This document shows positions 14,442 through 54,650 of a stretch of 64,000 nt of DNA, in pieces. The first letter of the stretch is position 1. Each line of letters begins with the position of its first letter. Location: NCBI GenBank assembly GCA_039208735.1, contig JBCCQY010000005.1, positions 57,744 through 121,743 of the forward strand, given 5' to 3'. The position numbers and the translations under genes were made by a program. A model generated the notes under the pieces. That model ran no database searches, was not told the DNA's origin, and was given only the letters and a program-made list of their open reading frames with translations. The DNA comes from Myxococcota bacterium. GTDB lineage: Bacteria > Myxococcota_A > UBA796 > GCA-2862545.

Positions 14442-15194
14442 ATGATGACGTCATGGATTGCGGTTTTGGGGCTCGGTTGTACCGAGCCAGCGCCGGACCT
14501 CGGGCCTACCACCTTGGCGGACCCGACCGTCCCCCAACCTACGGAGCCTCCGGCCCCGACGGATCCGCAGGATCCGACCGAGCCAGGTGACCCGTTCACG
14601 CCGGGTACCGGGGCGGATTGCGAGGGCGAAGAGACGTATCCGCTTGGCGCCGTCGACCCGATGGCGATCGGCCAAGTGCTATCGCCGTACGCGTGGCCAA
14701 ACGCCATCCACAACGGCACCGGAACCGCGGTGGGGCTCGACCTTGCCCTGACGCCCTGCAACCTTGATCCGAACATCGACTGGAGCGCGGCCGACGTCTT
14801 GCTCTTCATGTCGATTCCCTTTTGGTGAGGCACTTGTCGGAACCACGCCGGGGCGGTTGTGGGCATTGAAGACGAGATCGTGGCAGCCGGGGCAGAAATC
14901 ATCTGGATTGACCAGGGGAATGGCGCAACAGCACAAGAGTGCTACGAACGGTTCCAAAACCAAGACAGCACGAAGGGTTGGTGCGTGGGTGACGGCGAGA
15001 CGTTGCCGGTCGCCGGCACCTTCGACAACTCCCCACTCGCGGTGAACCGCGGCTTTGACATCATTGTCGATCGTCGTTCGATGACGATCGTGTGGGACTC
15101 AAGCCACGGGTCGACGGCCGGCAACGACAATCCGTCGGCCCAGGACGTACTCGAGGCGGTCCAGGCCGCAGTGGCCCAGTCGCGGGCGCGCTGA
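14442..15194 (+). CDS. Selenocysteine-containing thioredoxin-fold (redoxin-like) lipoprotein, UxxC motif
   Basis: The track ORFs 14295..14828 and 14859..15194 share a frame. Reading TGA 14826-14828 as Sec gives LLFMSIPFW-U-GTCRNHAG. Lipobox LGLGC; hairpin downstream of the TGA. Confidence 0.8.
14833..14876 (+). promoter_or_regulatory. Putative SECIS element
   Basis: Lower stem CTTGTC/GACGAG; upper stem CCAC-GCC [GGGGC] GGT-T-GTGG. The G-starting loop begins after 21 nt downstream of the TGA. Folded by eye. Confidence 0.55.
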
Positions 15195-15212
15195 ACCGCG
15201 GGTCGCACGGTG

Positions 15213-15890
15213 TCAGCTCGTCTGAACCAAGGTTCTGAGGCGGGCGTTCAGGTCATCCACGACGTCGTGCAGGTGCGCTGAAACGCCGTGCTGGTGCTCG
15301 ACGAACCGATGCCAGCGACCCACAGCGATCTCATCTCGCCAAAACTCGGCTCGCCCTGGACCCGTCCACCATCGCTCCCATCCCACGTCGCGGCGCATGG
15401 CATCGTCGATGGCGCCTGGGGTCACCGCTCCTGCGCGGAGGGTCCACCATACGTCGCCCAGGTCCTTTGCACGCCACGCGCGAGGCCCTCGTTCTACGAC
15501 GACCCCGAGCTTGCGGGCGACCACGGTGCTGAGTGGGCAGCCCCATACGTCGCCGAGCCATTCGATCGCTTCGGGCCACGCAAACGTGAGGTCCACCACA
15601 ACATCTCGCCACGCCCCGTCGATCGGCACCGATGTGGTCACACGCAAGCTGTCGGGCCCCGTGCGGTCGACGCGTAGCTGCGTGGCAAACCCATGGCGCA
15701 CGAGCCGGGACCGCAGCTGCTGTCGAACGAATTCGGCGTCGTTGGGCCACGTGCAGTACAGATCGATGTCGCGGGTCGGGCGTTGCATCTCGGGAAACGC
15801 GCGACGAATCCGCAGGCCGCCGCGAAGGGCAACGACCGGTCCTACGTCCTCGAGCGCGGCGAGAAGGGCACCGAGGTGGCGGTGATCTAT
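15213..15890 (-). CDS. AbiEii/AbiGii-like nucleotidyltransferase (orphan toxin-like, non-canonical or lost start)
   Basis: ALRGG...RPTRDIDL, VVVDL, TVVARKL and RAKDLGD. The nearest plausible start upstream of the motifs is an ATA overlapping the prpE stop, preceded by GAGGGG. Confidence 0.65.
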   Translation of the reverse strand: MDHRHLGALLAALEDVGPVVALRGGLRIRRAFPEMQRPTRDIDLYCTWPNDAEFVRQQLRSRLVRHGFATQLRVDRTGPDSLRVTTSVPIDGAWRDVVVDLTFAWPEAIEWLGDVWGCPLSTVVARKLGVVVERGPRAWRAKDLGDVWWTLRAGAVTPGAIDDAMRRDVGWERWWTGPGRAEFWRDEIAVGRWHRFVEHQHGVSAHLHDVVDDLNARLRTLVQTS

Positions 15891-17767
15891 CGGAGCCCCT
15901 CGATGAGCCGGGCGACCTCGTGCATCACATCTGGGTCCTCGATGGTGGCGGGCATGGACCAAGTCTGACCGTCCGCGATTTGGCGCAGGGTTCCTCGCAA
16001 GATCTTGCCGGATCGCGTCTTGGGGAGACGAGGCACGACGATGGCGTGCTTGAACGCGGCCACCGGCCCTATGGTGGACCGCACTGCGGCGACGGTGTCG
16101 GAAATGACTTGCTCGTGAGGGGTGGTGCAACCCTGATTCACCACGATGAGTCCCCACGGAAGCTGGCCCTTGGTGCCGTCGGTGACGCCAATGACGGCAC
16201 ACTCGGCCACGTCCGCGTGGCTGGCCACGACCTCCTCGAGGGCCCCCGTCGACAACCGGTGCCCTGCGACGTTGATTACATCGTCGGTCCGGGCCATCAC
16301 GAAGACATACCCGTCCTCATCGATGTAGCCTGCGTCGGCGGTGGTATAGAAGCCCGGAAAGCGCGACAAGTAGGCCTGGATGAAGCGCTCGTCTGCTCCC
16401 CAAAGGGTGGGAAGGGCACCGGGAGGCAGAGGCAGCTTCACCACGAGATTTCCGATGTCGCCCCGGGCCACCGGTTCACCCCCGTCATCGAGGACCTGCA
16501 AATCCCAGCCCGGCACCGGCACACTCGCCGATCCGGGCTTCACCGGCAGTGGTTCGATGCCCCGCGGGTTGGTCACGATGGGCCAGCCGGTTTCCGTCTG
16601 CCACCAGTGGTCGATCACGGGGACGCCAAGGTGCTCTTCGGCCCATCGCAACGTCGGCGGATCGCATCGCTCGCCCGCGAGGAAGAGGGTGCGAAGGCTG
16701 GATCGGTCGTAGGATTTCAAGTACTGGCCGGTCGGATCCTGACCCTTGATGGCACGAAAGGCGGTGGGCGCGGTGAACAACACGTTCACCTGATGATCGG
16801 CCACCACTCGCCAGAACGCGCCAGGATCGGGCGTTCCCACCGGTTTGCCTTCGTACATCACGGTGGTGCAGCGTTGCAGGAGCGGGGCGTACACGATGTA
16901 GCTATGCCCGACCACCCAACCGACATCGCTGGCGGCCCAATACACGTCGCCCGGTTGCGTCCCGTAGAGGTTGGCCATCGACCAATGCAAGGCGACGGCA
17001 TGGCCACCGTTGTCACGCACCACCCCTTTCGGCTGACCCGTCGTCCCTGACGTGTAGAGGATGTACAGAGGGTCCGTCGCCTCGACGGGAACGGGAGGAT
17101 GAGGCTTGGCTTCGGCCATGAGGGTGGCCCAATCCTGGTCACGGCCCGGTGCCAAGTCGGCCGACAGTTGCGGCCGCTGGACAACGAGACAGCGAGGCAC
17201 GATGTGAGAGGCGATACGAAGCGCCTCGTCGAGCAGCGGCTTGTAAGGAACGACGCGCTTTGGCTCGAGCCCGCAGGACGCGGTGATGACCAAGGTGGGT
17301 TGGGCATCGTCGATGCGAGCGGCGAGTTGGGCGCTCGCAAAGCCCCCAAACACCACCGAATGGACGGCCCCCAAGCGGGCGCAAGCAAGCATCGCAATGG
17401 CCGCCTCGGGAATCATGGGAAGGTAGATGACGACGCGGTCACCCTTCTGGACGCCAAGGTTGGCCAGGGCGCCGGCACAGCGTGCTACCGCATCGGTGAG
17501 TTCGGCGTAGGTGTAGCGGGTGACGGTGTTGGTCATCGCGCTGTCGTGCACCAACGCGAGTTGGTCGCCGAATCCGGCCTCCACATGACGATCGAGCGCG
17601 TTGGCACAGGTGTTGAGCTTTCCCCCGACAAACCAGCGGGCAGCGGGCGTCCGCGTTCGATCGAGGACCTGATCGAAGGGGTGGATCCAGTCGATTCCTT
17701 TGGCGGCCTCCGCCCAGAAGCCTTCAGGGTCCTGCAACGCGCGGGCGGCCAAATCGGCATAGGTCAT
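15887..17767 (-). CDS. prpE: Propionyl-CoA synthetase (acetate/propionate-CoA ligase)
   Basis: YILYTSGTTGQPKGVVRDNGGH, DHWWQTETG, ARTDDVINVAGHRLS and LPKTRSGKILR. Confidence 0.85.
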   Translation of the reverse strand: MTYADLAARALQDPEGFWAEAAKGIDWIHPFDQVLDRTRTPAARWFVGGKLNTCANALDRHVEAGFGDQLALVHDSAMTNTVTRYTYAELTDAVARCAGALANLGVQKGDRVVIYLPMIPEAAIAMLACARLGAVHSVVFGGFASAQLAARIDDAQPTLVITASCGLEPKRVVPYKPLLDEALRIASHIVPRCLVVQRPQLSADLAPGRDQDWATLMAEAKPHPPVPVEATDPLYILYTSGTTGQPKGVVRDNGGHAVALHWSMANLYGTQPGDVYWAASDVGWVVGHSYIVYAPLLQRCTTVMYEGKPVGTPDPGAFWRVVADHQVNVLFTAPTAFRAIKGQDPTGQYLKSYDRSSLRTLFLAGERCDPPTLRWAEEHLGVPVIDHWWQTETGWPIVTNPRGIEPLPVKPGSASVPVPGWDLQVLDDGGEPVARGDIGNLVVKLPLPPGALPTLWGADERFIQAYLSRFPGFYTTADAGYIDEDGYVFVMARTDDVINVAGHRLSTGALEEVVASHADVAECAVIGVTDGTKGQLPWGLIVVNQGCTTPHEQVISDTVAAVRSTIGPVAAFKHAIVVPRLPKTRSGKILRGTLRQIADGQTWSMPATIEDPDVMHEVARLIEGLR

Positions 17768-17839
17768 CGAAATCCCTCCGAGTGGATTCGACGAGCTTAC
17801 ACGCTACCCGACGCGGTTCGTCTGTCGTACAGTGCTTCC

Positions 17840-18712
17840 ATGGCAGACGGACCGACCTACAAGAACGGTGTGCAGTGGCGGGTTTCGGGGATTCCGAAGC
17901 AGCCGTTTCGAGACCTCTTCCCGCGGTTGATGGGCGCGTCTTGGACGGTCACAATCTTTTGGGCATTTGCGGCTTACGTGGGCACGTGTGTCCTGTTTGC
18001 GGGGCTATTTGCGCTCGAGCCGCACGGGGTAAGGGGTGCCAAGTCCACGGCCGACCTCATGTGGTTCAGCGTCCAGACGTTGTCGACCATCGGCTACGGC
18101 GGCATGACGCCCGCTACGGCATGGGCCAACTTCCTCGTCATTGTGGAGTCGTTCATTGGCCTTGCCGGGGTCGCGGTGGTCACGGCCATTCTCTACGCCA
18201 AGTTCTCGCTGCCGGAAGCCCGGGTTCAATTCAGTGAATGCCTCGCGGTTCACGATTGGCAAGGCGTGCCCACGCTCCACATCCGGATGGTCAACGAACG
18301 GGTCACGCCCATTCTTGATGCGGACATCCACGTGGGTGTGTTGGTCGATGAATCCGAAGAAGGTCGGCGATTTCGTCGACTTCACGACGTGCCTTTGGTC
18401 CGGAGTCGGGTGCCGTTCTTCGCCTTGTCCTTTACGATGATGCACGTCCTGGACGACTCGAGTCCGTTGCGGGTGGCGAAGAACGACCCTGAACGCTTGC
18501 ATTTCATCATCGTTACCGTGCGAGGGGTCGATGGCCGAACCCTTCAACCCGTGTTTACGCGAACGCTGTTCAACAAAGACGACTTGCGGTTTGGCATGGG
18601 GTTCGCGGACATGGTCGACGCCGACCGCGATGGCGTGGCGATTTTGGATATGACGCGCATCAATGCCATGGTTCCCCGCCCCTTCACGAAGTCCACGGAA
18701 CGAGGTTCGTGA
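17840..18712 (+). CDS. Inward-rectifier potassium channel (KirBac-like)
   Basis: Two TM helices around FSVQTLSTIGYG, AKFS.P.ARVQFS, cytoplasmic Kir domain (RMVNER, MHVLDDSSPL). TACAGT lies 6 nt before the ATG. Confidence 0.9.
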   Translation: MADGPTYKNGVQWRVSGIPKQPFRDLFPRLMGASWTVTIFWAFAAYVGTCVLFAGLFALEPHGVRGAKSTADLMWFSVQTLSTIGYGGMTPATAWANFLVIVESFIGLAGVAVVTAILYAKFSLPEARVQFSECLAVHDWQGVPTLHIRMVNERVTPILDADIHVGVLVDESEEGRRFRRLHDVPLVRSRVPFFALSFTMMHVLDDSSPLRVAKNDPERLHFIIVTVRGVDGRTLQPVFTRTLFNKDDLRFGMGFADMVDADRDGVAILDMTRINAMVPRPFTKSTERGS

Positions 18713-19434
18713 TCGGCACCGTGGATGGGCTGCTCTACGCGCTTGTCGGCCTGACCTTGGTGGGCGCGCCGATCTGGAGCCGCCTACGCTCCGAAGAGCG
18801 GGTGGCCAAGCTGGCCGAGGGCGATGGCCCCACCCGACGTCGCATGACGCTTCGCTCTATCGCGATTCAGTGGACGGCCGCTGCGGTTCTGGGGAGCGCG
18901 TGGTTCGCATCTGGCCGTGGTCTAGCACCCCTCCGGCTGGCCTCTTTACCGGAAGGACCGGTGGCGTGGGGCACCGTTGCCGCGACACTGGCCGTCGTGG
19001 GCTTGCTGACCGTATCTTGGTTGCGTGCCATGCGGTCTTCGGCGGCGCTGGCCCACCTGCGTAGCACCGTCGAGCCTGCGGTGTTGGGGCTCATGCCGCG
19101 AACGTCGGCCGACTTCATCCGCTTCGTGGGACTTTCGGTCACCGCTGGACTCTGTGAGGAGTTCGTGTACCGCGGGGTCGCGCTTGCTCTGCTGACCGAA
19201 GGGCTCGGGCTATGGCCGGCCCTCGCCCTCACGACGGTCGCATTTGGGGCAAGCCACGCCTACCAGGGGCCCCGCGGCATGCTCCGCACCGGTGTGGTGG
19301 GACTCGTCTTCGCGGGGATGGTGGTGGTGACGGGCGCGTTGAGCCTGGCCATGGCCGTGCACGCCTGGGTCGACATCGTGCAGGGGCGTCTCCTCGCCGA
19401 GGCCGTCAAGGCCCCTGACGAGGTCGACGACTAG
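18709..19434 (+). CDS. CPBP (CAAX/Abi family) intramembrane glutamic protease
   Basis: GLCEEFVYRG, FGASHAYQG and AVHAWVD. GTGA overlap with the channel gene. Confidence 0.88.
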   Translation: MIGTVDGLLYALVGLTLVGAPIWSRLRSEERVAKLAEGDGPTRRRMTLRSIAIQWTAAAVLGSAWFASGRGLAPLRLASLPEGPVAWGTVAATLAVVGLLTVSWLRAMRSSAALAHLRSTVEPAVLGLMPRTSADFIRFVGLSVTAGLCEEFVYRGVALALLTEGLGLWPALALTTVAFGASHAYQGPRGMLRTGVVGLVFAGMVVVTGALSLAMAVHAWVDIVQGRLLAEAVKAPDEVDD

Positions 19435-20966
19435 GGCGTGGCGGTGCCGTTGAAGTAGGGCAAGAGGAAGTGGTAGCCGGCCGCACCGACCACCCGACCA
19501 ATGTCCTGACCCGCGGGAATCGAGTCCGCGAAGTGCACCCCGCCCCAGAACCGGGTCAGGCCGCACTCGTCTCGCAGATCATCCCACGTCTGGTAGGTCA
19601 GGGTCACGTCGTGGGGCGGGCTGTTGGGCTCGACAAACGAGCTACCCGTCAACTTGGTAATGCTCCAGTCGAGCGTGTTGCCCGTGGGGTTGAGCGGCGA
19701 ATTGCGCGCTCCAAGGTACAACTTCGCGGCTTCGGCGTGGGCCGCGCAGAAGCTTGCTGTGGCCGAGGGATACTCGGGGTGGTTGGCCACGTTGAGGTAG
19801 GACCGCCATTCGGCACCGGTGATGTCATGCACGGTGCCCTGGCCAGGCCCGCCCCAAGCGGTCAGCTGGGTGTTCTCGTAGAGGAGCTCGATCGCACTGA
19901 ACGGGCGAACGGCGTCAAAACGTCGCTTCTCCTTCCAAATCACGATGGCGGTGTCGAACGCGGCCGCATTCACCAGAAAGTCCACCTCGAGGAACTCCTG
20001 GAGGGTGAGCTGCTGCTGGAAGGACGCCACGGCGATCGACAGCCCAAGGCTGTTGATCTTGTCCTCGAAGACTTCGGCGGCCATCTTCTGCTCGAGGGTC
20101 AGGTTGGCCGACGCATCGATGACCTCGTCGGCCTGGTCGATGTAGCGCCTACGGGGGTTGCCGTTGGGAGCCACCGCGAAGCTCCGGCCTGGGCGAGGGG
20201 CCCGAAGGTTGGGGTGCGCAGTAAGGAAGGGATCGGTGATTTCCATTTGCGGCGTGACGAAGCTCTGAACCGAAAACAGGCCATTGCCCGCTGTCACGAT
20301 GGCCGGCTGCCAACGTCGTGGATCGCGAAGTCGGGTGGCTCGGTTGAAGGGCCGGTAGTTTGTGTAGTCCGCGTAGGGCTGGCGGTTGTAGATGGCGCCA
20401 TTTTCGTCGCCGAGCTGATTCATGCCGTCCTGCAGACGGGCGTTCATGACGGCTTGGCCCGCGGCCGTACCGATGCTCATGGCCATCTGCTCGGCCGGGT
20501 CGTGCTCGTCGACATGCAGCGCGGCAATCATCGCATCCCAGTCATCCGCGAACTGGGGAATCAGGCTGTCCACGACGGGCTTGCTCGCGTAGACCAACGC
20601 AATGTCACAATTCCGGGAGGTCTGCTCGGCCACCGGGCGGCGAGTCGTGTTGTAGATCAGCCCGATGGCATTGTCGTCGTAGGGCGCGCAGGCGTCATAC
20701 CAGGCGTTCGTAATCGTGGCCGTCAGGCGAAGCACCAAGGTCGCATCGCCGGGATTTACGACGTTGAGCATCCGCGTGCCGACAACGGGAATCACCAACG
20801 TGAAAGGGGTTGTATTCTGTAAAATCGGTTCACCGGGCTGGATGGAGTCCGGTGCGGGGATGGGGGCAAGCTCTGGAGATTGTGCTAATGCCGCCGGGGA
20901 AATCGACAGGAAGCCGGCAATCGCAAGCCCTGCCACCCAGCGAGACCGGGCCAAGGTAGTGAACAT
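19431..20966 (-). CDS. Secreted vanadium-dependent haloperoxidase-like protein
   Basis: Signal peptide; KRRFDAVRP, HPEYPSATA and RFWGGVHF vanadate-binding motifs. RBS GGAGAG. Confidence 0.8.
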   Translation of the reverse strand: MFTTLARSRWVAGLAIAGFLSISPAALAQSPELAPIPAPDSIQPGEPILQNTTPFTLVIPVVGTRMLNVVNPGDATLVLRLTATITNAWYDACAPYDDNAIGLIYNTTRRPVAEQTSRNCDIALVYASKPVVDSLIPQFADDWDAMIAALHVDEHDPAEQMAMSIGTAAGQAVMNARLQDGMNQLGDENGAIYNRQPYADYTNYRPFNRATRLRDPRRWQPAIVTAGNGLFSVQSFVTPQMEITDPFLTAHPNLRAPRPGRSFAVAPNGNPRRRYIDQADEVIDASANLTLEQKMAAEVFEDKINSLGLSIAVASFQQQLTLQEFLEVDFLVNAAAFDTAIVIWKEKRRFDAVRPFSAIELLYENTQLTAWGGPGQGTVHDITGAEWRSYLNVANHPEYPSATASFCAAHAEAAKLYLGARNSPLNPTGNTLDWSITKLTGSSFVEPNSPPHDVTLTYQTWDDLRDECGLTRFWGGVHFADSIPAGQDIGRVVGAAGYHFLLPYFNGTATP

Positions 20967-21080
20967 GTGCTCTCCAAGACCAGACGGCGCCGAAGCGCTG
21001 GCCGTCAAGAGTTGACGGCAAGGCCAAGGTAGGGCGTGGCTGGGAGGCTGTCGATAATGGCTGCTTTCCATTACTGTAAA

Positions 21081-21403: not shown

Positions 21404-22924
21404 ATGGAAAAGAAGGGGGCCCAACGGGACCAACTTCCCGAACTTCTCGAGCATCACGGTGGTTTGCGGGTCGGCGTTGCAGGAGACGTCAGCGCCCAAA
21501 CCGGGGTGCCCGAAGCGGATGTCTACGGGGTGGCGTCGTTCTACACGTTGCTCGCCCAGCCCGATGCGGGCGTACGGGTCTGCCAGGGGCTGTCCTGTCA
21601 GCTGGCGGGGACCGAGGCGCGCGCACAGGAGCTGGCGGCAGTCGGGACGCCCTTTACGAAGGTGAGCTGTCTTGGGCAGTGCGACCGGGCTCCCGTGGCC
21701 TTGGATCCCACCCTCGAGCTCCTGGCGTGGGGCGGGGCCGGAACCGTGACGTCTGCCAATTCGGACCTGCCCATGAACCTCGCGGGGGCGGACGACGCCT
21801 CCTACTCCGCCTTGAAGCAGGCGCGAGAACGCGGGGCCGAGGCGCTGCTCGCCGAGCTGAAGGCGAGCGGCCTGCAGGGGCGAGGCGGCGCCGGGTTTCC
21901 GGCCCACATCAAGTGGCAGGCCGTGCGCAACGAGCGGGAACTCGAGCGTTTTGTCGTGGTCAACGCCGATGAAAGCGAACCGGGCACCTTCAAGGACCGG
22001 GAGCTTCTGCTGCGGCGGCCGCACCTGGTGCTTGAGGGGGCGGCGATCGCCGCTTGGTTCGCCAAGGCATCGGTCGTCTACCTCTACCTGCGAGGAGAGT
22101 TCACCGACTGTCGGCGTCGCCTGGAGACGGCGGTGGCCGAGGCGCAACCCCATCTTGGGGACCTCGAGATTCGGCTTTCGTTGGGGCACGGTGCCTATAT
22201 CTGTGGCGAAGAAACGGCGTTACTCGAGGCGATTGAAGGCAAGCGAGGCATGCCGCGGCACAAGCCTCCGTTCCCGACCCAGCGAGGGCTCTTTGGCAAA
22301 CCCACGTTGATGAACAACGTGGAGACATTGGCGTGTGTGCCCAGCATCGTGAAGCGAGGTGGAGACTGGTTCCGCGCGCAGGGTCGCACCGAGGCCGGCA
22401 CCAAACTGTATTGCATCTCGGGCCATGTGGAGCGACCGGGGGTGTACGAGCTGCCGCTCGGAGTGACGCTCGATGAACTGGTGCAGGCCGCGGGTGGCTA
22501 CGTGGGCACGCCAAAGGCGTTTTCGCCGGGCGGGGCCGCCTCGGGGTTTCTGCCCATCACGAAACGTGATGTACCGCTTGACATGGGCCATCTCAAAGCC
22601 GAAGGATCCATGCTCGGAAGTGCCGGGGTGGTGGTCCTGAACGACACGGTCGACATGGCCCAAGCTGCGCTCTGGCAACAGATCTTCTTTGAAGACGAGA
22701 CCTGCGGCCAATGTGCCCCGTGTCGCATCGGGTGTTCCCTTCAGCGGCAGGCCCTCGAGGGCTACGTAGGCGACCGTTCCGTGCCCAGCCGGCTCGATGC
22801 GGTCGAAGACGTCCACTGGGAGATGGAGGAAGGATCGATTTGCGGCCTCGGGGTCACGGCGAGCCTGCCGCTGGTCACAGCGATGCGCCATTTCCCTGAG
22901 GATTTTGGCCGATCTGAACCGTAA
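21404..22924 (+). CDS. NuoE-NuoF-like fused diaphorase subunit (NAD-linked formate dehydrogenase gamma/beta type)
   Basis: VYGVASFY; 2Fe-2S ligands CQGLSC and [32 protein letters not shown]; 4Fe-4[10 protein letters not shown]...ICGLG. RBS GAGGAGG. Confidence 0.88.
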
Positions 22925-23830: not shown

Positions 23831-23906
23831 GCCTTCGCCTTTCAGAACTTGGTCAGAATTGGCACTCCCCTCTTGAGCGTCGAGATTGGCGCGACGGGAG
23901 GACGGA

Positions 23907-26708
23907 ATGACTCGAGCCCTTCAAGTAGTCTTCTTCGTGACAGGCTTACTCGCCTGTTCGGGCGATGACGAGATGCCCGAAGATACGGGAATGCCTGACA
24001 TGGAGACCGAGACGGATACTGGTGATCCGCCCCCTCCGCCTCCGCCCCCGCAGAACATCGTGGAACTCGCGCAGGACAATGATGCGCTGTCGACGCTCGT
24101 GAGCCTGCTCGAGCGGGTGGACCTCGATGACACGTTGTCCGGCGAAGGCCCCTTCACGGTGTTCGCGCCAGTCAACAGTGCGTTCATGGGCATTGACCCA
24201 TCGATGCTCTCGGATGAAGAACTCACCGAAATCCTGTCTTACCATGTGGTTTCAGGCGAAGTGGACTCGGCGTCGATTCCCGAGCGGGCCACGTCGGAAG
24301 CCACCTTTACCTTGTTCTTCGATACCGATGGTGGGGTCCGGGTCAACGATGCGAATGTGACCGAAGCGGACATCGATGCCACCAACGGCATCGTGCACGT
24401 GATCGACAGCGTTCTCATGCCGCCCAACATTGTTGAAGCGGCCGGATTTGCTGGTTTGACCGAACTCACCGCAGCGGTGGGGGCCGCCGATCCGCTGGTC
24501 GCGGCTACGCTTTCGGCACCGGGCAACCTTACGGTCTTCGCCCCGACCGATACGGCGTTCCAGGGCATCACCGCCCCGAGCGACCCCGAAGACCTCGCCG
24601 AGATCCTCACCTACCACGTGCTGCCCACCGCGGTGAATTCGACGGAGATTCCCGCACTGGCCACGAGCTTCGCGGGCTTCACGCTGTTCTTCGACACCTC
24701 GGCCGGCGTGATGGTGAATGACGCCACCGTCGTGGTCGCCGATGTTCAGACCACGAACGGCGTGGTGCACGTCATTGACCAGGTGTTGCTGCCGCCCGAC
24801 ATCCTAACCGCAGCTGGGTTTGCGGGGCTCAACGAGCTTGCCACGGCGGTGGGAGCCGCCAACGCTTCGGTGGCCAACACGCTTTCGGGTCCGGGTCCGT
24901 TCACCGTCTTCGCGCCGACCGACATGGCGTTCCAGAACATCACCGCGCCCACGGATCCCGATGAACTGGCCGAGATCCTCTTCTACCACGCGCTCACCGA
25001 AGAGGTGGATTCCACCACGATTCCCGATCTCGCCGATAGCGCGGCGGGGTTCACGATGTTCTTCGACACCACGGCCGGGGTGATGGTCAACGACGCGACC
25101 GTGGTGGTCGCCGATGTTCGAACCACCAACGGCATCGTCCATGTCATCGACACCGTGCTCACGCCGCCGGACATCTTGGATGCGGCGGGTTTCGCAGGTC
25201 TGAACGAACTTGCCACCGCAGTGGGGGCTGCCGACCCGTCCGTGCTCAAGACGCTTGACGGCCGGGGCCCCTTCACGGTGTTCGCGCCCACCGATGCGGC
25301 GTTCCAGTCCATCAAGGCCCCGACCGATCCCGCGGCCCTCGCCGAGATCCTCTTCTACCACGCGCTGACGAGCGAAGTAGATTCCACGGCCATTCCCGAC
25401 ATTGCCGATAGCGCCGCTGGTTTCACGCTATTCTTCGACACCACGGCCGGCGTTCAGGTCAACCAGGCCAACGTGGTGATTGCCGACGTTCGCACCACGA
25501 ACGGCATCGTCCACGTCATCGATGACGTTCTGCTGCCCCCCGACATCGCAACGGCGGCGGGCTTCGCGGGACTCAACGAACTCGTCAATGCGGCTCTCGC
25601 GGCTGACCCCATCGTGCTCAAGACGCTGGCGGGACCGGGGCCCTTCACGGTGTTTGCGCCGACCGACGCGGCGTTCCAGAGCATCACCGCGCCCACCGAT
25701 CCCGCAGCTCTCGCGGAGATCCTCTTCTACCACGCGCTGACGAGCGAAGTGGATTCCACGGCCATTCCGGCCTTGGCCGATAGTGCGGCTGGTTTCACGT
25801 TGTTCTTCGATACGACGGCGGGTGTTCAGGTCAACCAGGCCAGCGTCGTGATTGCGGACGTGCGCACCACGAATGGCATCGTGCATGTCATCGATGACGT
25901 TTTGTTGCCGCCGGACATCGTTGAGGCTGCGGGATTCGCGGGCCTCAACGAGCTTGCTGCCGCGGTGGGCGCAGCGGACGCCTCGGTGGTCGCCGCCCTG
26001 CAGGGCCCGGGTCCGTTGACCGTGTTTGCCCCGACCGACACCGCCTTCCAGGCCATTACCGCGCCGACCGACCCCGGTGAACTCGCGGACATCCTCTTCT
26101 ACCACGCCTACCCGGGTAGCTTCGACGCCGCGTCGATCCCGGCCAAGGCCGATAGTGCATTCGCTAACGACTTCGGCATTCCGGTCAGCGCGCTGTTCGA
26201 CACCTCGAATGGGGTCGACATCAACAACGCCTCGGTCGTTGTCGCGGATGTCCGGACGACCAACGGCATTGTGCACGTGATCGACGAAGTCCTGCTTCCG
26301 CCTTCGATCCTCGATCTCGCGGGCATTGCGGGGCTCAACAGCTTGGCCGGGGCGCTCATGGCGGCGCCAGGCGACCTCGACGTGCTCCTGTCGGGCTCGG
26401 GTCCCTTCACGGTGTTCGCTCCGACCGACGACGCGTTTTCGGGGGCTCCGGCGGTGACGGGTCAGGACCTGACCGACGTTTTGCTCTTCCACGTCGTCGA
26501 CCTTGACATTGCGACGCCGGTGCTTGCCGCGGACCTCGTGGATGGCGAAGTCGACACGGCCCTGACCGAGACCAACGCCATCGACACCATCACCGTAGAT
26601 ACGGTGGCCGGTACGGTCGAAGGGGCGAATCTGGTGCTCACGGACGTCAATGGCACGAACGGCACGGTCCACGTCATCGACGCGGTCATGATTCCTCCGA
26701 GCTTCTAG
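23907..26708 (+). CDS. Fasciclin (FAS1) repeat lipoprotein with seven domains
   Basis: Lipobox LLAC; seven TVFAP...YH/FH...NGxVHVID units. RBS GGAGG. Confidence 0.92.
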   Translation: MTRALQVVFFVTGLLACSGDDEMPEDTGMPDMETETDTGDPPPPPPPPQNIVELAQDNDALSTLVSLLERVDLDDTLSGEGPFTVFAPVNSAFMGIDPSMLSDEELTEILSYHVVSGEVDSASIPERATSEATFTLFFDTDGGVRVNDANVTEADIDATNGIVHVIDSVLMPPNIVEAAGFAGLTELTAAVGAADPLVAATLSAPGNLTVFAPTDTAFQGITAPSDPEDLAEILTYHVLPTAVNSTEIPALATSFAGFTLFFDTSAGVMVNDATVVVADVQTTNGVVHVIDQVLLPPDILTAAGFAGLNELATAVGAANASVANTLSGPGPFTVFAPTDMAFQNITAPTDPDELAEILFYHALTEEVDSTTIPDLADSAAGFTMFFDTTAGVMVNDATVVVADVRTTNGIVHVIDTVLTPPDILDAAGFAGLNELATAVGAADPSVLKTLDGRGPFTVFAPTDAAFQSIKAPTDPAALAEILFYHALTSEVDSTAIPDIADSAAGFTLFFDTTAGVQVNQANVVIADVRTTNGIVHVIDDVLLPPDIATAAGFAGLNELVNAALAADPIVLKTLAGPGPFTVFAPTDAAFQSITAPTDPAALAEILFYHALTSEVDSTAIPALADSAAGFTLFFDTTAGVQVNQASVVIADVRTTNGIVHVIDDVLLPPDIVEAAGFAGLNELAAAVGAADASVVAALQGPGPLTVFAPTDTAFQAITAPTDPGELADILFYHAYPGSFDAASIPAKADSAFANDFGIPVSALFDTSNGVDINNASVVVADVRTTNGIVHVIDEVLLPPSILDLAGIAGLNSLAGALMAAPGDLDVLLSGSGPFTVFAPTDDAFSGAPAVTGQDLTDVLLFHVVDLDIATPVLAADLVDGEVDTALTETNAIDTITVDTVAGTVEGANLVLTDVNGTNGTVHVIDAVMIPPSF

Positions 26709-26782
26709 CCCGCCGCGCGTTGCGTGGCACGAGTCGTGAGGGGCGACCGCCCTGATCTATACTCCTCCGAGGAGTTGGGTCG

Positions 26783-29509: not shown

Positions 29510-29520
29510 CACCTCGACGG

Positions 29521-29548
29521 AGGGCCGTGGCATGATTGCGGCCCTTTT
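29521..29548 (+). terminator. Hairpin plus short T run between fdhF and fhs
   Basis: AGGGCCGTGG-CATGA-TTGCGGCCCT then TTT, just before the fhs RBS. Confidence 0.4.
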
Positions 29549-38883: not shown

Positions 38884-38888
38884 TCGTT

Positions 38889-47241: not shown

Positions 47242-49740
47242 ATGGGCATCGCCATTGGAAGTTGGACGTGGGACGACGAAACCCGAGAGCTGCGACGAGG
47301 AGACGAGCAGCTTGAGCTGACAAAGCTCGAGCGGGACCTGTTGGCGTTCCTGATCCAGCGTTCAGGTCAGACGGCAAGCCGCGCCGAGTTGCTTCGTGAG
47401 GTCTGGAAGTACGCGCCCTCGGTGCGCTCGCGAGCCGATGCGAAGACGGTCGCCCGTCTGCGCTCCAAGCTTGGTGACGACGGAGCGTGTTTGGTCACGG
47501 TCTACGGTCGCGGCTACCGTCTCGACATCGCGAGTGACGTCGATCTTGTGGGTCGGGAAGACGAGCTGCTGGCAGCTCGCGAGGCGCTCCACCAACACCG
47601 GCTCGTGACCCTCCATGGGGTGGGGGGCGTAGGAAAGACGCGTCTGGCGCGCTCGCTTGTCCAGGGGTGGGCGTCGACCTTGTGGATTCCGGCCCGTGAA
47701 CGAGAGACCGTCGACGCCGTGGTGTTGGGGGTGGCAGGGGCTCTCGAATTGGGTCCGGTCTCCTCTCCCGATGCCATCGATGCCGCGCTGGCCGAAGCGG
47801 GGCGGGTGCTGTTGGTTCTCGACGAGGTTGAACACGTGGTCGAAGGGCTCATGCCGCGGGTTCATCGCTGGCTCGAGCTGGCCCCTGACATCGCCGTGTT
47901 GTTGACGTCGCGGGTCCTCGCCGATGACTCCCCTTGGGTCGCCGTGTCTCCGTTGAGCCCGGAGGCCTCGGTGGAGCTGTTTCAGCGTCGGGCGAGGCGC
48001 GTGCGACCACAGCTCGAGGTCCCGACCGAGCAGCTCGAACCTCTGATGCGAATCTTGGAAGGGGTTCCCCTGGCCATCGAACTCGCGGCCGCGCGGCTGC
48101 GGGTGCTCGATTTGAAGCGGTTGACCGAGCGGGTCCGGCGGAACTTCGAGTTGCTGCGTGACCGAAAACGAAGTCTCCATGCGACGTTGCATTCGTCCTG
48201 GGACTTGTTGCAGCCCGCGGAGCGGGAGGTGCTCGCCGCGGCCTCGCTGTTCCCGGGGTCATTCACCACGGAAGCCCTCGAGGAGTTGGTGGACACCCAC
48301 GACGTGCTCGATGCCCTGGATGGGCTCGTTCGAGCTGCGCTGATCGTGGATGAAGGCGCGCAGTGGCGACTGCTCGAGATGGTGCGGTCGTTCGCGCGGC
48401 CTCGTGTGGACGAGGCTCAAGTCGCGGCGTTCGTCTCTTGGGCCGCCCGGTTGGCCCGCAAGCGCTGGCGAGGTGCGGAGGTCAATGGCGAGCCGGTCTT
48501 CCACGCGCTGGTGCGCGAGTCGTCGATTTTCGATGAGGCGGCTGCACTCTGTACGAACCCCCAAGACCTCGCCTGGCTTGCCTCGGCCCTTGCGTCGACC
48601 GACGAACGTACAGGATGGCGCGTTTCAACCGCCAACGTCCTCGACGCCGTTGACGTCGATGGGATCGATGCGGAGCCGGCCGTGGCCATCTCCCTGATGC
48701 GAGCCGTCCGGTGCTTTGTGACCGGCGTGCCGAGGGACGGTCTGCCTCACGCGCGGAAGGCGTGGGAGCGCGCACAGTCGAGTCAGGACCCGATTCTCCA
48801 AGGCGTAGCTTGGATTCCACTCGTGGGCGGCACGCACTTTGCTCTGGGTTCGGAAGCCGCCGAGCCACTCGTCAACGACCTGACGCAATGGCTCGCCACC
48901 CAGTCGTTGCCTCCGTTTTTGCACGCACGGGTGCTTGGACGAATCGCGGAGTTCGAACGAGCCCAAGGGCTACCCCAGTTCAAGGACCGGGTGATGAAAG
49001 CGCTGGCGTTGTTGGGCGACAGCGATGACTCCAATCTACGGTTTCTTTTGCTCAATTTGCTGGCGCTTTCGTTGAGTCGAGAGGGCCGTGCGGCCGAGGC
49101 CCTTTCCATTCTTCAAGATGCGTTTGCCGGCGCGGTGGAGTCAGGGGCTCGTTGTGCGGTGCAACTGGGACGTATTCTCTCGACGACTCACCTCGCGATG
49201 GGCAACCGTGAACAGGCGCGTGAAGCGGCGCTTTGGGTCACCGAACGTGCTCGCCAGGTCGGCGATGTATTCAACCATTTGGCGTCACGGTTCAACTATG
49301 CCGCCTTGATCGATGAGCCTCTTGAAAAGGAACTCGTGTTCCGTGAAATCAAAGAGGGGAGCATTCGTCATGGCTTGCCTCGTCTCGCCGCCCAGGCCGT
49401 GTTGTTCATTGGGTACATGCGCCATGCCGATGGCCGGCTTGATGAGGCGATTGTGTGCTATCGCGAAACCCGTGAGCTTGGAACCGATGCGCCCCCCATC
49501 GTGACGGATTTTAGCCGCTGTACCGAATCGTTGGCCCTTGCCGAGCAAGGGCAGCACGCTCTTTCGGAACAGCGATGGCGTGAGACGCTCGACGCGGTGG
49601 AGCCGCTCGTCGTCGTAGCGCGGGAGATGACCCGAGCGGCGTTGGACGGCCGCTGGGCTTACCTGGATGAAGAGCAAGCCAACGAACCGCACATGTCGAT
49701 ACGTCAGCTCCTCGACCTGGCGGGACGCCTACGCCCCTGA
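47242..49740 (+). CDS. OmpR-type winged-helix plus NB-ARC-like ATPase plus TPR regulator
   Basis: LT.LE..LL, ELLREVW, LRSKL, TVYGRGYR; LVGRE, GVGGVGKT, VLDEVE, GVPLAIELAAAR; helical C-terminus. Confidence 0.88.
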   Translation: MGIAIGSWTWDDETRELRRGDEQLELTKLERDLLAFLIQRSGQTASRAELLREVWKYAPSVRSRADAKTVARLRSKLGDDGACLVTVYGRGYRLDIASDVDLVGREDELLAAREALHQHRLVTLHGVGGVGKTRLARSLVQGWASTLWIPARERETVDAVVLGVAGALELGPVSSPDAIDAALAEAGRVLLVLDEVEHVVEGLMPRVHRWLELAPDIAVLLTSRVLADDSPWVAVSPLSPEASVELFQRRARRVRPQLEVPTEQLEPLMRILEGVPLAIELAAARLRVLDLKRLTERVRRNFELLRDRKRSLHATLHSSWDLLQPAEREVLAAASLFPGSFTTEALEELVDTHDVLDALDGLVRAALIVDEGAQWRLLEMVRSFARPRVDEAQVAAFVSWAARLARKRWRGAEVNGEPVFHALVRESSIFDEAAALCTNPQDLAWLASALASTDERTGWRVSTANVLDAVDVDGIDAEPAVAISLMRAVRCFVTGVPRDGLPHARKAWERAQSSQDPILQGVAWIPLVGGTHFALGSEAAEPLVNDLTQWLATQSLPPFLHARVLGRIAEFERAQGLPQFKDRVMKALALLGDSDDSNLRFLLLNLLALSLSREGRAAEALSILQDAFAGAVESGARCAVQLGRILSTTHLAMGNREQAREAALWVTERARQVGDVFNHLASRFNYAALIDEPLEKELVFREIKEGSIRHGLPRLAAQAVLFIGYMRHADGRLDEAIVCYRETRELGTDAPPIVTDFSRCTESLALAEQGQHALSEQRWRETLDAVEPLVVVAREMTRAALDGRWAYLDEEQANEPHMSIRQLLDLAGRLRP

Positions 49741-49923: not shown

Positions 49924-51270
49924 ATGGACCCATCTACTGGGGACGCAGGGCCGCGTACGTTGTCACTAATCGACGGCGTGGTGGACATCCGGAACCGCAC
50001 CATCGAACGGAGCGGTCGGGAACGGCTGTTGTTGACGAACCTCGAAGCCGATTTGTTGGCCTATCTTGCCGAACGGACCGAACCGGTTCCCGTCCAGCGC
50101 TTGTTGACGGACGTTTGGGGATACCACGCACGGTCGAGGTCGCGGGCGCCCTACACGACGATTCAGCGTCTTCGAAAGAAAATCGAGGTCGAGCCACGGG
50201 AACCTCGACACCTCCGCTCGATTTTTGGGCAGGGCTATGTGTTTGTCGGCGCGCGTTTTGGAGGTCCAGACCAGGGGAATCGGTCTGCGGACGGTGCGTC
50301 AGATGAGCATCCGCTCCATCAGGCGTTTTCTCGCGCCCGGCTGGTGACCGTCATCGGTCCGCCCGGGATTGGAAAGTCCAGGCTCACCCTTGACTACTTC
50401 GAGAGTCAGCCCGGAGCCGCCTGCCGGTTGGTCAACCTTGGGGATGTCAACGAAGAGGAAGTCCTCGCCGATCGGCTTGGAAGCACCTACGGATTGACCG
50501 AGATACACGACCTCTCCACCATGGGCCGAGCGATGGACTTGGTGGGACCTCACACGTTGGTGCTCGATGATGCAGAAGCGATGGTGCCCATGCTTCATCA
50601 CCACGTCGAGCGCTGGTTGTTCGAGGCGCCGGCGATGCGCATCGTGGTGACGTCACGGCGCAGGCTCGCCCTTGCCGATGAGCACCTGCATCGGGTGGGG
50701 CCGTTGGATCTCGATGAAGCCACCACGTTCCTCGAACGCTGCATTCAGCGTACGGAAGGCGTCGCTGCCGCTGTGAACGCCGATCGCGATGCGTTGCGTC
50801 GTCTGGCGCGCGCACTCGACGGGATTCCCCTGTCGCTCGAGATGGCGGCGAGTCGGTTGGTGGTGTTCTCGTTGCAGCAGCTCAACCATCGCCTGCCCAA
50901 CGACACGGCATTGCTCCGCGGACCGTCTCGGGGACGATTTGAAAGCGTGGACGAGGCGGTGGACTGGTCCTGGCGAAACCTGAAGTGCGAAGAGCAGGCC
51001 GCACTGGCCCAGTGTTCGCTGTTTCGAGGCCAGTTCGATCTCACCGCGGCGGAGCGCATCGTGGACTGTGGTTCGGTGCCTGTCGTCGATGTGATGCAGT
51101 CGCTGGTCGAGCATTCGCTGATCACACGTACGCCCTCGGGAGGGTTCGTCTTGCTGCATCCGGTCCGCCAGCGAGCGCTGCGGGACCTGCGTGCGGAGCC
51201 CGTACTGTGGCGGGAGACGGAGGAGCGTCACCGGGCCTCGGAAGAGCCGCGCCGGCAGCTCCCCAACTAA
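49924..51270 (+). CDS. Winged-helix plus NB-ARC-like ATPase regulator lacking a TPR tail
   Basis: LLTDVWGY, RLRKKIE, GQGY; GPPGIGKS, VLDDAE, VTSR and GIPLSLEMAA. Confidence 0.82.
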   Translation: MDPSTGDAGPRTLSLIDGVVDIRNRTIERSGRERLLLTNLEADLLAYLAERTEPVPVQRLLTDVWGYHARSRSRAPYTTIQRLRKKIEVEPREPRHLRSIFGQGYVFVGARFGGPDQGNRSADGASDEHPLHQAFSRARLVTVIGPPGIGKSRLTLDYFESQPGAACRLVNLGDVNEEEVLADRLGSTYGLTEIHDLSTMGRAMDLVGPHTLVLDDAEAMVPMLHHHVERWLFEAPAMRIVVTSRRRLALADEHLHRVGPLDLDEATTFLERCIQRTEGVAAAVNADRDALRRLARALDGIPLSLEMAASRLVVFSLQQLNHRLPNDTALLRGPSRGRFESVDEAVDWSWRNLKCEEQAALAQCSLFRGQFDLTAAERIVDCGSVPVVDVMQSLVEHSLITRTPSGGFVLLHPVRQRALRDLRAEPVLWRETEERHRASEEPRRQLPN

Positions 51271-53052: not shown

Positions 53053-53862
53053 ATGCGAGAGCCACACGGTGGGCCGCTTTACAAGATCGTGCCCAAGGCG
53101 GATTGGGACGCAGCCGAGGGCCGCATCCCTTGGGCGCCTATCGATCGGAGCGACGGGTTCATTCACTTGAGTGCCGCTCACCAGGTGCGCGAGACCGCCG
53201 CAAGGCACTTCGCGGATCGTGATGATCTCGTGATTGTGGACATTGATCCCCAGCACATCACTCCCACGACCCTCCGGTGGGAGATCTCTCGTAGCGGCCA
53301 GCACTTTCCGCACGTCTACGGTGACATTCCGCGGGCTGCGGTGGGTCGGGTGACGCCGTTGTCGACGGTGGGTGAGACGGTCCGTGTCGACCCCCACATT
53401 CCCCAACCGTTAGGCGCATCCCCAGATCCTGAAGCGGTGGCGCGCCGTTTGGAGCGTGCTCATGAGGCCTACCTTCGGTCTCATGGCGACGGAGGCACCT
53501 CCCGGCTCATCGTGGCGACACGTTCGCTCGATGCGATCGTCGCGAGCAGCGACCGACCCCTTTCGGTTCACGACGTTTACGTCCGCTGGCTCGACGAACC
53601 CCCGAACTCACCCCACGAAGCGGTACCCGAGTGGCGACCCGCAGGTCCGCAGGTTCGAACCTTCGTGGGGGGAGGGGCGGTCCACATCGATCATGAGGTC
53701 GCCCAGTTGCTTGCATCGCCATCGGGAACGGTGCTTGAACCACTGGCCATGGCGTACGCCCTTGGTTGTCGTCTGGCGACGCTCGCCGTCCCTTCCGACG
53801 AACCCGCTCCGACCGAGTCAGGCTTTAGGCTGAGCCACGTACGCCTGACATTCGGTGGTTGA
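53053..53862 (+). CDS. DUF952 domain protein with C-terminal extension
   Basis: LYKIV...W, DRSDGFIHLS..HQV, LRWE and FPHVYG, followed by about 150 aa of unassigned sequence. Confidence 0.8.
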   Translation: MREPHGGPLYKIVPKADWDAAEGRIPWAPIDRSDGFIHLSAAHQVRETAARHFADRDDLVIVDIDPQHITPTTLRWEISRSGQHFPHVYGDIPRAAVGRVTPLSTVGETVRVDPHIPQPLGASPDPEAVARRLERAHEAYLRSHGDGGTSRLIVATRSLDAIVASSDRPLSVHDVYVRWLDEPPNSPHEAVPEWRPAGPQVRTFVGGGAVHIDHEVAQLLASPSGTVLEPLAMAYALGCRLATLAVPSDEPAPTESGFRLSHVRLTFGG

Positions 53863-53864
53863 GC

Positions 53865-54650
53865 TTAAGGCAGCGCACTTATGACGTCGCCCGAGTTGGG
53901 GCGGCCGTCGGCGATGAGCACTTCGGCCCCTGGGCCGAGGAGCGACAGGCTAGGCAGGCCGATGGAGCCGCCCGGCACGAAGCTTCCACCAACCCCGAAG
54001 CCCGGGTCTGCCACGACGGGGTGGGTCAAACCGAACCGGTCGACCCACTGCTGCAGCTCGGCCTGTGATGGGGGGCTACCACCGTTGTTCTCACCCACGA
54101 GGGTGATGACGATGAATCCCTGATCGCTATATTCCTTGTACAGAGCTTCCAGCTCTGGGGCTTCCGCCGCACAAGGTCCTCACCAGAATGCGGCGGCCAC
54201 GAGCATCACTGCACGATCACAAAAGTCGTGCAGGCGCAGCGTGTCGCCGAACTGGTCCCGAAGTTCGAAGTCGAAGGCCACCGAGCCGACCGTGCTGCCT
54301 GTGCCCGTGAGGTCATTGCGACAGTCCCCAATCGCCCAGCCACCCAGGTATGGGCGATCGTCGGCATTGGTAGGGTCGGTGTTGCCGGCGACTTCTTCAC
54401 CGTCGTTAAAGCCATCGCCGTCGGTGTCAGCCACGGCAGGATCACTGCCGAACGCTTCTTCCTCGGAACGGAGCAGGCCATCACCGTCTTCGTCGGTGTC
54501 GGCGGCTCCGCCGGGGCCGCTAAGGACGTTGTCTTCGATGAACTGGTCCCAGAAATCGCCGTCAATCGGTTCCCCGACCGCGTTCCCACCACCCCCGAAG
54601 AAGCAGCCGCTGGTCAGCAGGAGCGCGGCGACGCCCCATCGTGTCGTCAT
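53865..54650 (-). CDS. Selenocysteine-containing TlpA/AhpC-type redoxin lipoprotein with bacterial TSP3 repeats
   Basis: Lipobox LTSGC; DxDGDG repeats; DFELRDQFG..LRLHDF; AAFW-U-GPCAAEAPEL (TGA at 54180-54182), in frame with 53865..54098; cis-Pro GLP. Confidence 0.88.
54134..54176 (-). promoter_or_regulatory. Putative SECIS element
   Basis: On the minus strand: CCTTGT/ACAAGG lower stem and perfect CAGAGCT [GGA] AGCTCTG upper stem. The loop begins after 29 nt downstream of the TGA. Confidence 0.7.

Follow-up and report, generated by a model that had tools for sequence, protein, structure and literature searches.

We report here on four genes, each interrupted by an in-frame TGA, in a 64,000-nt stretch of DNA from a Myxococcota bacterium (GenBank assembly GCA_039208735.1, contig JBCCQY010000005.1, positions 57,744 to 121,743), which is referred to below, at its full length, as the window and in whose numbering all positions without a contig label are given. 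Sequence comparison makes us highly confident that the four TGAs are decoded as selenocysteine (Sec, U) by the genome's own SelA, SelB, SelD and tRNA-Sec, with hairpins inside the coding sequence as predicted marks for SelB, and that the genes belong to a set of at least 14 selenoprotein genes, in an order of bacteria where the Sec trait is nearly universal. Read through their TGAs, the genes are the following:

Gene 1: 14442-15194, plus strand, 250 aa; Sec codon TGA 14826-14828, motif SIPFW-U-GTC
Gene 2: 26783-29509, plus strand; Sec codon TGA 27851-27853, reading CHQCAAT-U-HAPTVAG
Gene 3: 34719-35198, plus strand, 159 aa; Sec codon TGA 34821-34823, reading NVASF-U-GFTPQY
Gene 4: 53865-54650, minus strand, 261 aa; Sec codon TGA 54182-54180, reading AAAFW-U-GPC

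A preliminary description of this DNA had placed in-frame TGAs at 14826, 27851, 34821 and, on the minus strand, 54182. All four are there, the frames continue beyond them, and translation yields a single unbroken frame for each gene once TGA is read as U, whereas a standard-code mechanical list of open reading frames (ORFs) splits all four (gene 2, for example, into 26783-27853 and 27878-29509). The predicted Sec peptides are ...SIPFW-U-GTCR for gene 1, ...CAAT-U-HAPTVAGLVTMFGAGAMTNSIPEIR for gene 2, ...FSLVVNVASF-U-GFTPQYAGLR for gene 3 and ...AVMLVAAAFW-U-GPCAAEAPELEALYK for gene 4.

Each TGA was also said to stand where the respective fold has its catalytic Cys, and this holds for all four genes, the residue being a redox or a metal-ligand Cys, on the evidence of alignments and, for gene 1, of a structural model. 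Gene 2 encodes the alpha subunit of a formate dehydrogenase (TIGR01591, 799 bits against a cut-off of 666), and its Pfam domains (N-terminal 2Fe-2S and 4Fe-4S, and molybdopterin) give the FdsA/NuoG-fusion architecture. The residues U-H of gene 2 align with C386-H387 of Rhodobacter capsulatus FdsA (6tg9_A; 279 bits over 300 aa around the active site), thus presenting the Sec/Cys-then-His order; Cys386 of 6tg9_A is, we assume, the metal (Mo) ligand. Gene 3 covers the whole glutathione peroxidase (GPx) domain (PF00255, 127 bits against a cut-off of 27, profile positions 1-108 of 108), with its U aligned to the active-site Cys of NTASKCGFT in 6vpd; the active-site motif of these enzymes is worded N-x-A-S-x-[UC]-G-x-T. 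The product of gene 4 is a predicted lipoprotein (signal ..LLLTSGC) composed of N-terminal bacterial TSP3 repeats (PF18884, 38.8 bits) and an AhpC/TSA-ResA-like domain (PF00578, 50.7 bits against a cut-off of 26) that carries UxxC. Its W-U-G-P-C aligns with W-C-S-I-C of the thioredoxin-family lipoprotein 4hqs, U standing at the first Cys of CxxC, and the TSP3 region matches the myxobacterial proteins MtsD and CglD weakly. The motif of gene 4 is FWUGPC, and against NF041054, the model for ResA-like WAxxUGC selenoproteins, it scores 36 bits for a cut-off of 300.

The product of gene 1 is likewise a predicted lipoprotein (signal ...LGLGC), in which TGA 14826-14828 encodes U129 and TGA 15192-15194 is the true stop. 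No Pfam family matched it, and against NF040769 (SelL-related redox protein) of NCBIfam it reaches 19.7-20.8 bits, below the cut-off of 120; a single one of 21 family members matches this model at all. An AlphaFold (AF2) model built from the 21 family members (pLDDT 90.7, pTM 0.90) puts the Sec residue (U74 in model numbering) between a strand (64-70) and a helix (75-85), that is, at the N-terminus of helix 1. The top Foldseek matches of this model are the ResA-like thiol-disulfide oxidoreductase 4nmu (E 1.7e-6, TM 0.75-0.80 on target), AhpC and PrxQ. By its predicted structure, gene 1 would therefore fall into the class of thioredoxin-fold thiol-disulfide oxidoreductases with [UC]xxC at the start of helix 1.

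Homologues were sought in 151 genomes of the order. Those of gene 1 occur in 24 genomes, all of the window's own family, and an in-frame TGA is present in 32 of 32 full-length matches at 43-59% identity (31 with one TGA, 1 with two), in addition to which there are two short partial matches without a TGA; among the best matches, which were fetched and aligned, all 20 loci have TGA at the U column of gene 1. For gene 2, 46 genomes of the family were searched, and the 20 orthologues at 70% identity or more all carry the TGA, which is present in six and absent in three of nine more distant matches. GPx matches were found in 108 of the 151 genomes, with TGA in only 4 of about 150 listed matches, namely gene 3 itself, its closest relative (72%) and two at 58-59%; in the best 12 loci the U column of gene 3 is TGA in 4 and Cys in 8. 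The family of gene 4 is found in 149 of the 151 genomes. A count by hand gave a single TGA for about 113 of the 150 matches listed and none for the others, and at the U column of the best 12 loci seven have TGA and five Cys. On contig C105 the genome itself has a Cys paralogue that is 53% identical to gene 4. The preliminary description would have been undone by homologues lacking Cys or Sec at these sites; homologues with Cys or Sec exist for every one of the four positions.

The genome (9.4 Mb in 288 contigs, 92.7% complete, with 6.15% estimated contamination) was also searched for selA, selB, selC and selD, a check that had been asked for at the outset, and all four were found: selA (380 bits), selB (313 bits, above cut-off), selD (373 bits, contig C188) and selC, the tRNA-Sec with anticodon TCA. 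The selD gene has an in-frame TGA of its own (..ACAG-U-ASKLG), followed by a hairpin of -17.9 kcal/mol with loop GGU. SelA is present in 134 of the 151 genomes of the order, including 58 of the 61 high-quality ones, so the Sec trait belongs to the lineage and not to this genome alone. The tRNA-Sec, SelA, SelB and SelD would thus insert Sec at the four UGAs, and SelB would recognise a hairpin in the coding sequence 18-29 nt downstream of each.

In order to locate such selenocysteine insertion sequence (SECIS)-like hairpins, we scanned for stems of at least 5 bp with a loop of 3-8 nt, a G in the first two loop places and a loop start 16-37 nt after the UGA, the distance range used by bSECISearch. 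The four genes gave:

Gene 1 hairpin: 14843-14862, plus strand, CCACGCC-GGG-GCGGUUGUGG, -8.0 kcal/mol, loop 22 nt after the UGA
Gene 2 hairpin: 27862-27888, plus strand, loop GGUCU, -11.1 kcal/mol, loop 18 nt after the UGA
Gene 3 hairpin: 34838-34855, plus strand, GUACGCA-GGUC-UGCGUAC, -8.5 kcal/mol, loop 21 nt after the UGA
Gene 4 hairpin: 54141-54157, minus strand, CAGAGCU-GGA-AGCUCUG, -8.3 kcal/mol, loop 29 nt after the UGA

The stem-loops with G-starting loops that had been announced at 18-29 nt after each TGA were thus recovered, at 22, 18, 21 and 29 nt. A conserved G is named as a feature of the SECIS apical loop in PMC1794560. As a control, 3000 in-frame TGC, TGT and TGG codons were sampled from the 3531 present in confident long ORFs of the same genome. 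At the control rate, which is given below, the chance of hairpins at four sites of four is about 6e-4; from the sequence of the window alone they are no more than suggestive, and it is the comparative evidence that is decisive.

All 45 Sec-form loci examined (20, 14, 4 and 7 for genes 1 to 4) preserve both the place and the loop of the hairpin. In the orthologues of gene 1 the loop lies 20-22 nt after the UGA in 20 of 20 loci, and the hairpins fall into two registers, ten of the form CACGC-N5-GCGUG and eight of the form GGCACGCC-N3-5-GGUGGCC, the window gene and one other being variants; every member retains the core pairs, and compensatory CG to UA and GC to CG double changes occur. For the formate dehydrogenase, the GGUCU loop recurs 18 nt past the UGA in all 14 orthologue loci. 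The four Sec forms of GPx, whose proteins are 55-71% identical, share six identical inner pairs and the GGUC loop, and keep the outermost pair in three of four (it is A-C in locus L076), whereas among the eight Cys forms, owing to differences at synonymous sites, 0-6 sequences pair at these columns. Similarly, in the seven Sec forms of gene 4 the loop is GGA or UGGA and lies 28-29 nt past the UGA, with compensatory GC-CG and AU-GC exchanges, and the same columns pair in 0-3 of the five Cys forms. To judge from these alignments, the hairpins appear to behave as SECIS elements should, being kept in Sec forms while the corresponding columns of Cys forms are mostly unpaired.

Several observations weigh against decoding of the four TGAs as Sec, or at least against the part that the hairpins play in the argument. 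Hairpins of -8.0 kcal/mol or lower follow 15.7% of the 3000 control codons in this genome of 64% GC, so that a single hairpin is weak evidence, and the folds of the whole 60-nt segments do not differ significantly from shuffled sequences (z = +0.47, -1.37, -0.33 and -1.86). RNAalifold applied to the 20 gene 1 sequences returned 4 pairs only and no covariation, because two registers coexist, and the pair counts given above use structures that were defined from the same sequences. Three of the eight Cys-form GPx loci (L078, L081 and L077) possess strong hairpins of -13.6, -14.5 and -9.7 kcal/mol at 21-25 nt after the Cys codon, with loops unlike GGUC and under loose criteria; these may be remnant SECIS elements or chance. 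Finally, none of the machinery genes shares a contig with the window, the assembly being one of 288 contigs for which contamination is estimated at 6.15%.

The window was also scanned for further sites of the same kind. A loose coding filter is passed by 34 TGA sites, the four Sec sites and 30 others, and for 18 of these 30 a comparison of the read-through frames with Pfam found no domain across the TGA. A site at 33407 was considered as a fifth Sec candidate and rejected, as a DJ-1 gene ends there and a ferritin-like gene comes next. Two Trans_reg_C regulators (47242-49740 and 49924-51270) were checked and contain no in-frame Sec.

Could the four genes be pseudogenes, their TGAs having arisen by nonsense mutation or by errors of assembly? 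The assembly is of a fragmented, metagenome type (288 contigs, with the completeness and contamination given above), and many other in-frame stops of the genome do align to sense codons of paralogues, though largely in shadow frames. Against this, TGA recurs at the same column in 20 of 20, 20 of 20, 4 of 12 and 7 of 12 loci of other genomes with the downstream frame conserved, and the affected position is always a catalytic Cys. Sequence error, which the preliminary description had wanted examined, is countered further for genes 1 and 2: contigs of a second assembly (from run X1) covering 14500-16625 and 25721-30013, around the TGAs at 14826 and 27851, match with 0 differences, although X1 may be the source sample and hence counts as a second assembly, not as independent data. 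(Three other runs of small share, X2, X4 and X5, yielded short, diverged pieces only, with no bearing on habitat.) We regard decay or error as a very improbable explanation. A genome-wide reassignment of TGA to, for example, Trp or Gly would account for frames that stay open across it, and is just as hard to credit: TGA is the commonest stop, ending 4349 of 7478 ORFs of at least 300 aa (2248 end in TAG and 881 in TAA), and in none of 53 further read-through candidates, most of them adjacent genes such as L31/RF1 and L9/DnaB, does a Pfam domain cross the TGA, which together exclude a reassigned code. Moreover, the TGAs align with Cys and not with Trp or Gly, and the Sec machinery is present.

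A subtler alternative is that the UGAs are read mostly as Cys, or by near-cognate read-through, so that the products are effectively Cys enzymes; Cys can indeed enter at UGA via the Sec pathway when selenium is scarce. The conserved SECIS-like hairpins and the Sec-containing SelD argue for a working Sec pathway, and the close family of gene 1 has no Cys codon in 32 genomic copies, which would be odd if Cys were equally good. This alternative therefore seems improbable, if somewhat less so than the two preceding ones. Decoding as Sec by SelB and SECIS, the layout proposed in the preliminary description, is supported by the machinery, the conserved TGAs and the hairpins.

Beyond the window, three routes were used for finding selenoprotein genes in the genome: alignment of paralogues, Pfam searches of 73 read-through candidates, and searches of the genome with 15 families known to include selenoproteins. 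The 73 candidates were picked mainly from 301 filtered TGA sites, on the strength of a Cys close by or a hairpin that reached -6 kcal/mol or lower, and selD and one site of the paralogue test were added to them. Including the four of the window, at least 14 selenoprotein genes have direct support; those outside the window number at least 10, on 9 other contigs:

Contig C24: gene 1 paralogue, AW-U-PAC
Contig C45: AhpC/TSA-like, HW-U-GHC
Contig C172: AhpC/TSA-like, LW-U-SRC
Contig C47: member of NF053656 ('TUGYCR motif thioredoxin fold (seleno)protein'), 171 bits
Contig C90, 1162-1980: ArsM-like methyltransferase with Sec
Contig C94: OsmC-like, U-LTGT
Contig C188: SelD, G-U-ASK
Contig C78: SelW-like, C-GS-U
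Contig C215: DsbA-like, U-PWC
Contig C263: ArsC-like, U-TTC, with GGUC loop

Hairpins of -8.0 kcal/mol or lower accompany 12 of the 13 scored Sec sites, as opposed to 15.7% of the control codons; among the 8 sites that family searches alone had revealed, 7 have one. The paralogue test aligned TGA to C or U in 20 candidates, compared with 1 for TAG; most of its U-U pairs were rejected as true stops aligned to true stops, and about 6 are real. Searches of the genome with PF00085, PF13905, PF02627, PF13462, PF02635, PF00462 and PF00581 returned no TGA-containing match, and the search with PF00837 matched nothing anywhere, controls included.

Statistics that make no use of homology had no power here, since TAG controls equal the TGA counts, and homology routes were used for this reason. 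Sites that look coding on both sides show no excess of TGA over TAG, whether above 15 bits (631 vs 587), in the larger set (1374 vs 1452) or by the best-frame test (301 vs 286), nor is there an excess of UxxC/CxxU motifs at in-frame TGA sites genome-wide. Both sets are dominated by shadow frames and by neighbouring genes that share a frame. Many of the sites align to sense codons of paralogues, and their similar numbers are probably due to shadow frames of paralogous genes. As the homology-free filters missed five genes that family searches afterwards recovered (GPx, selD, SelW, DsbA and ArsC), and 73 of the 301 filtered sites were examined and 228 left out, the figure of 14 is a lower bound.

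Two further loci deserve mention. Beside the Sec methyltransferase of contig C90, a 1116-aa TPR/STAND frame (2005-5352, minus strand) has one in-frame TGA, with 830 codons before it and 285 after, and a hairpin of -7.2 kcal/mol; it is a possible, partly supported, further Sec gene beyond the 14, and a DsrE gene lies at 5467-5802 of the same contig. An ATP-grasp ORF of contig C44 (40044-41270, minus strand; locus L192) is interrupted at residue 355 by a TGA in frame, beyond which 54 codons look strongly coding, and it has a hairpin of -8.6 kcal/mol. Neither a Pfam nor an NCBIfam domain was found across this TGA, which could be a Sec site, the mark of a pseudogene or the boundary of two genes.

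In PMC5029168, 'selenoprotein-rich' denotes organisms with at least 6 selenoprotein genes, 78% of selenoprotein-rich organisms are anaerobes, and the largest bacterial selenoproteome reported, that of Syntrophobacter fumaroxidans, comprises at least 39 genes. With at least 14 genes the present genome passes this threshold, so that the 'unusually large selenoproteome' expected from the window stands in so far as it exceeds 6 and falls short in that it lies far below the record. In both genomes, many unlinked Sec genes belong mostly to thiol-redox families with UxxC or CxxU; at least 39 genes there compare with at least 14 here (FdhA, SelD, GPx, SelW-like, DsbA-like, ArsC-like, OsmC-like, ArsM-like and redoxins). 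A further likeness would be the former placement of the window's lineage in Deltaproteobacteria, for which the evidence is weak. The anaerobe families Grd, Hdr and Frh are not among the at least 14 genes, no search having been aimed at them. All the families found, except that of gene 1, appear in the list of prokaryotic selenoprotein families in PMC9312934 (Table 1). Within a limited literature collection we found no publication on myxobacterial selenoproteins.

The four genes of the window had been described as unlinked and as pointing to a genome-wide trait. This is right in that at least 10 Sec genes lie on other contigs and in that the four are functionally unlinked, being found on both strands amid unrelated genes with no apparent operon or shared function; statistically, on the other hand, they are clustered. 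Four of at least 14 Sec genes fall within 39.4 kb (14826-54182) of a 9.4-Mb genome, and in 50,000 trials of random placement such clustering arose in 0.034% with 14 genes, 2.3% with 40 and 10% with 60. The clustering is thus stronger than chance predicts; chance together with the selection of the window, or the existence of many undetected Sec genes, are possible explanations. A third one, that the four genes make up a local selenoprotein island, co-acquired or co-regulated, instead of being scattered members of a genome-wide trait, would fit these figures. In addition to the Sec genes on nine other contigs, however, it faces the lack of a functional link and of adjacency, the position of the homologues in a single-contig relative (G059), megabases apart at 1.15, 1.24, 4.46, 5.12 and 9.03 Mb, and the selection effect that the window was chosen because it held four. 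We consider an island unlikely, and prefer to see the four genes as members of the genome-wide selenoproteome.

The family of gene 1 was pursued further with a profile of 21 members, which matched 347 proteins at E ≤ 0.001 among 1.84 billion cluster representatives. As the preliminary description had expected of gene callers for all four genes, 87 of the best 150 of these matches end exactly at the W preceding the TGA, about 20 begin just past the hairpin and 36 span the site. One of the latter, P0004, is close (262 bits) and reads ..SIPAW-C-PDC in a listing that prints U as C, so that Cys and Sec are indistinguishable in it; the remaining 35 are longer and distantly related, and have a genuine W-C-x-x-C at this place. 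No gene 1 homologue of near length was found in an index of 5.8 billion proteins, because callers split the family at the TGA, and a search of a collection of genome contigs found no related locus. As far as seen in these sequences, the close family of gene 1 would always use Sec and is absent from Pfam and NCBIfam, its distant cousins using Cys; it appears to be an uncatalogued, uncurated selenoprotein family that gene callers systematically cut.

Taking these results together with those for the order, we lean, with some reserve, towards a broader proposal, in which gene 1 founds an uncatalogued, essentially obligate-Sec family of exported W-U-x-x-C thioredoxin-fold lipoproteins, represented by at least 87 clusters at 50% identity in public metagenomes and invisible in protein databases because every standard gene call cuts it at the TGA. 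The host order would, in the same proposal, be an unrecognised selenoprotein-rich clade in which most gene 4 copies and all close copies of the NAD-type formate dehydrogenase also use Sec.

The mechanism in which these genes would take part is a textbook one, and three of the four families are already listed; what is known of the mechanism is left unchanged. As in the fdhF system of Escherichia coli, which consists of SelA, SelB, SelC, SelD and a SECIS hairpin directly 3' of the UGA, the window genes have a UGA at the active site and, inside the coding sequence, a hairpin whose loop contains G, and the genome holds all four machinery genes. The SECIS loop of fdhF resembles the GGUC and GGUCU loops of genes 3 and 2, and there is no difference in principle between the two systems, the loop starting 18-29 nt after the UGA in the window and binding by SelB being predicted here. 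Among known selenoproteins, gene 3 corresponds to the GPX-like bacterial family (pfam00255, UxxT, in PMC9312934, Table 1) and to animal GPX4, as it matches the full PF00255 and has the motif U-G-F-T; a difference is that the TGA form is rare in its own order. Gene 4 shares PF00578, UxxC and the lipoprotein signal with the Prx-like thiol:disulfide oxidoreductase selenoproteins (pfam00578, UxxC, same table) and with the ResA, TlpA and Etrx lipoproteins, from which it differs by its N-terminal TSP3 repeats and its sub-cut-off score for NF041054. Gene 1 is, in its predicted structure, akin to this group in fold and motif, and differs from it in having no Pfam or NCBIfam model above cut-off. Genes 1 and 4 would accordingly act as exported lipoproteins of the ResA/TlpA kind, Sec replacing the attacking Cys of CxxC, and gene 3 would be a Sec glutathione or thioredoxin peroxidase.

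Gene 2 fuses NuoG-like Fe-S domains and a molybdopterin domain just as R. capsulatus FdsA does (PDB 6tg9/6tga), and differs from it by having Sec in place of the Cys ligand, kept in the 20 orthologues mentioned above, and by a NuoE/F-like partner that is near but not adjacent. Two neighbours bear on its role:

21404-22924, plus strand: NuoE/NuoF-like fusion (FdsG/FdsB-like; Pfam Complex1_51K, NADH_4Fe-4S, 2Fe-2S_thioredx)
29536-31200, plus strand: formate-tetrahydrofolate ligase (PF01268, 753 bits), directly downstream of gene 2

The NuoE/F-like gene, 3.9 kb upstream of gene 2 with two unrelated genes between, is the probable diaphorase partner of the formate dehydrogenase, and gene 2 would thus be a Sec-liganded Mo/W formate dehydrogenase of the NAD-linked FdsA type, placed next to formate-tetrahydrofolate ligase. 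With 61-62% identity, the ligase finds its best matches in metagenome-assembled genomes that bear the label 'delta proteobacterium' or 'Myxococcota', which gives the taxonomy weak support; the sequencing run in which the DNA is best represented is a marine metagenome. Between the NuoE/F-like gene and gene 2 lies a gene for a 940-aa protein with seven fasciclin (FAS1) domains (23886-26708, plus strand), at which read contigs show many internal joints, as expected for repeats. Directly downstream of gene 1, on the opposite strand, 15213-16202 (minus) encodes an AbiEii-type nucleotidyltransferase toxin domain (type IV toxin-antitoxin). The other genes between the four include Ser/Thr kinases, a sulfatase, acetyl-CoA synthetase, a Kir-like channel, the fasciclin-repeat protein, multihaem cytochromes, a P450 and regulators. 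The Kir-like potassium channel (17099-18712, plus strand) has an IRK_C domain, and 19431-21071 (minus strand) combines DUF6851 with the second helical bundle of vanadium chloroperoxidase and is possibly haloperoxidase- or acid-phosphatase-like. Farther along, 58349-59557 (plus strand) encodes a prokaryotic pentameric ligand-gated ion channel (Neur_chan_LBD and Neur_chan_memb).

Under standard gene calling, all four genes would come out as fragments, and so would at least 10 others of the genome. Once the TGAs of the four are read through, our picture of the organism's metabolism regains a formate dehydrogenase, a peroxidase and two redox proteins of the envelope, the first of them as a Sec form of the FdsA-type enzyme fixed in one bacterial family. 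The GPx and ResA-like genes provide natural Sec/Cys pairs in which the gain and loss of SECIS elements may be studied. According to PMC1794560, families that never use Cys are few (FdhA, SelW-like, GrdA and GrdB), and gene 1 represents a candidate new selenoprotein family whose close members are never Cys. A large-genome, probably myxobacterial, lineage would thereby be added to the selenoprotein-rich bacteria, which, according to PMC5029168, are mostly anaerobes.

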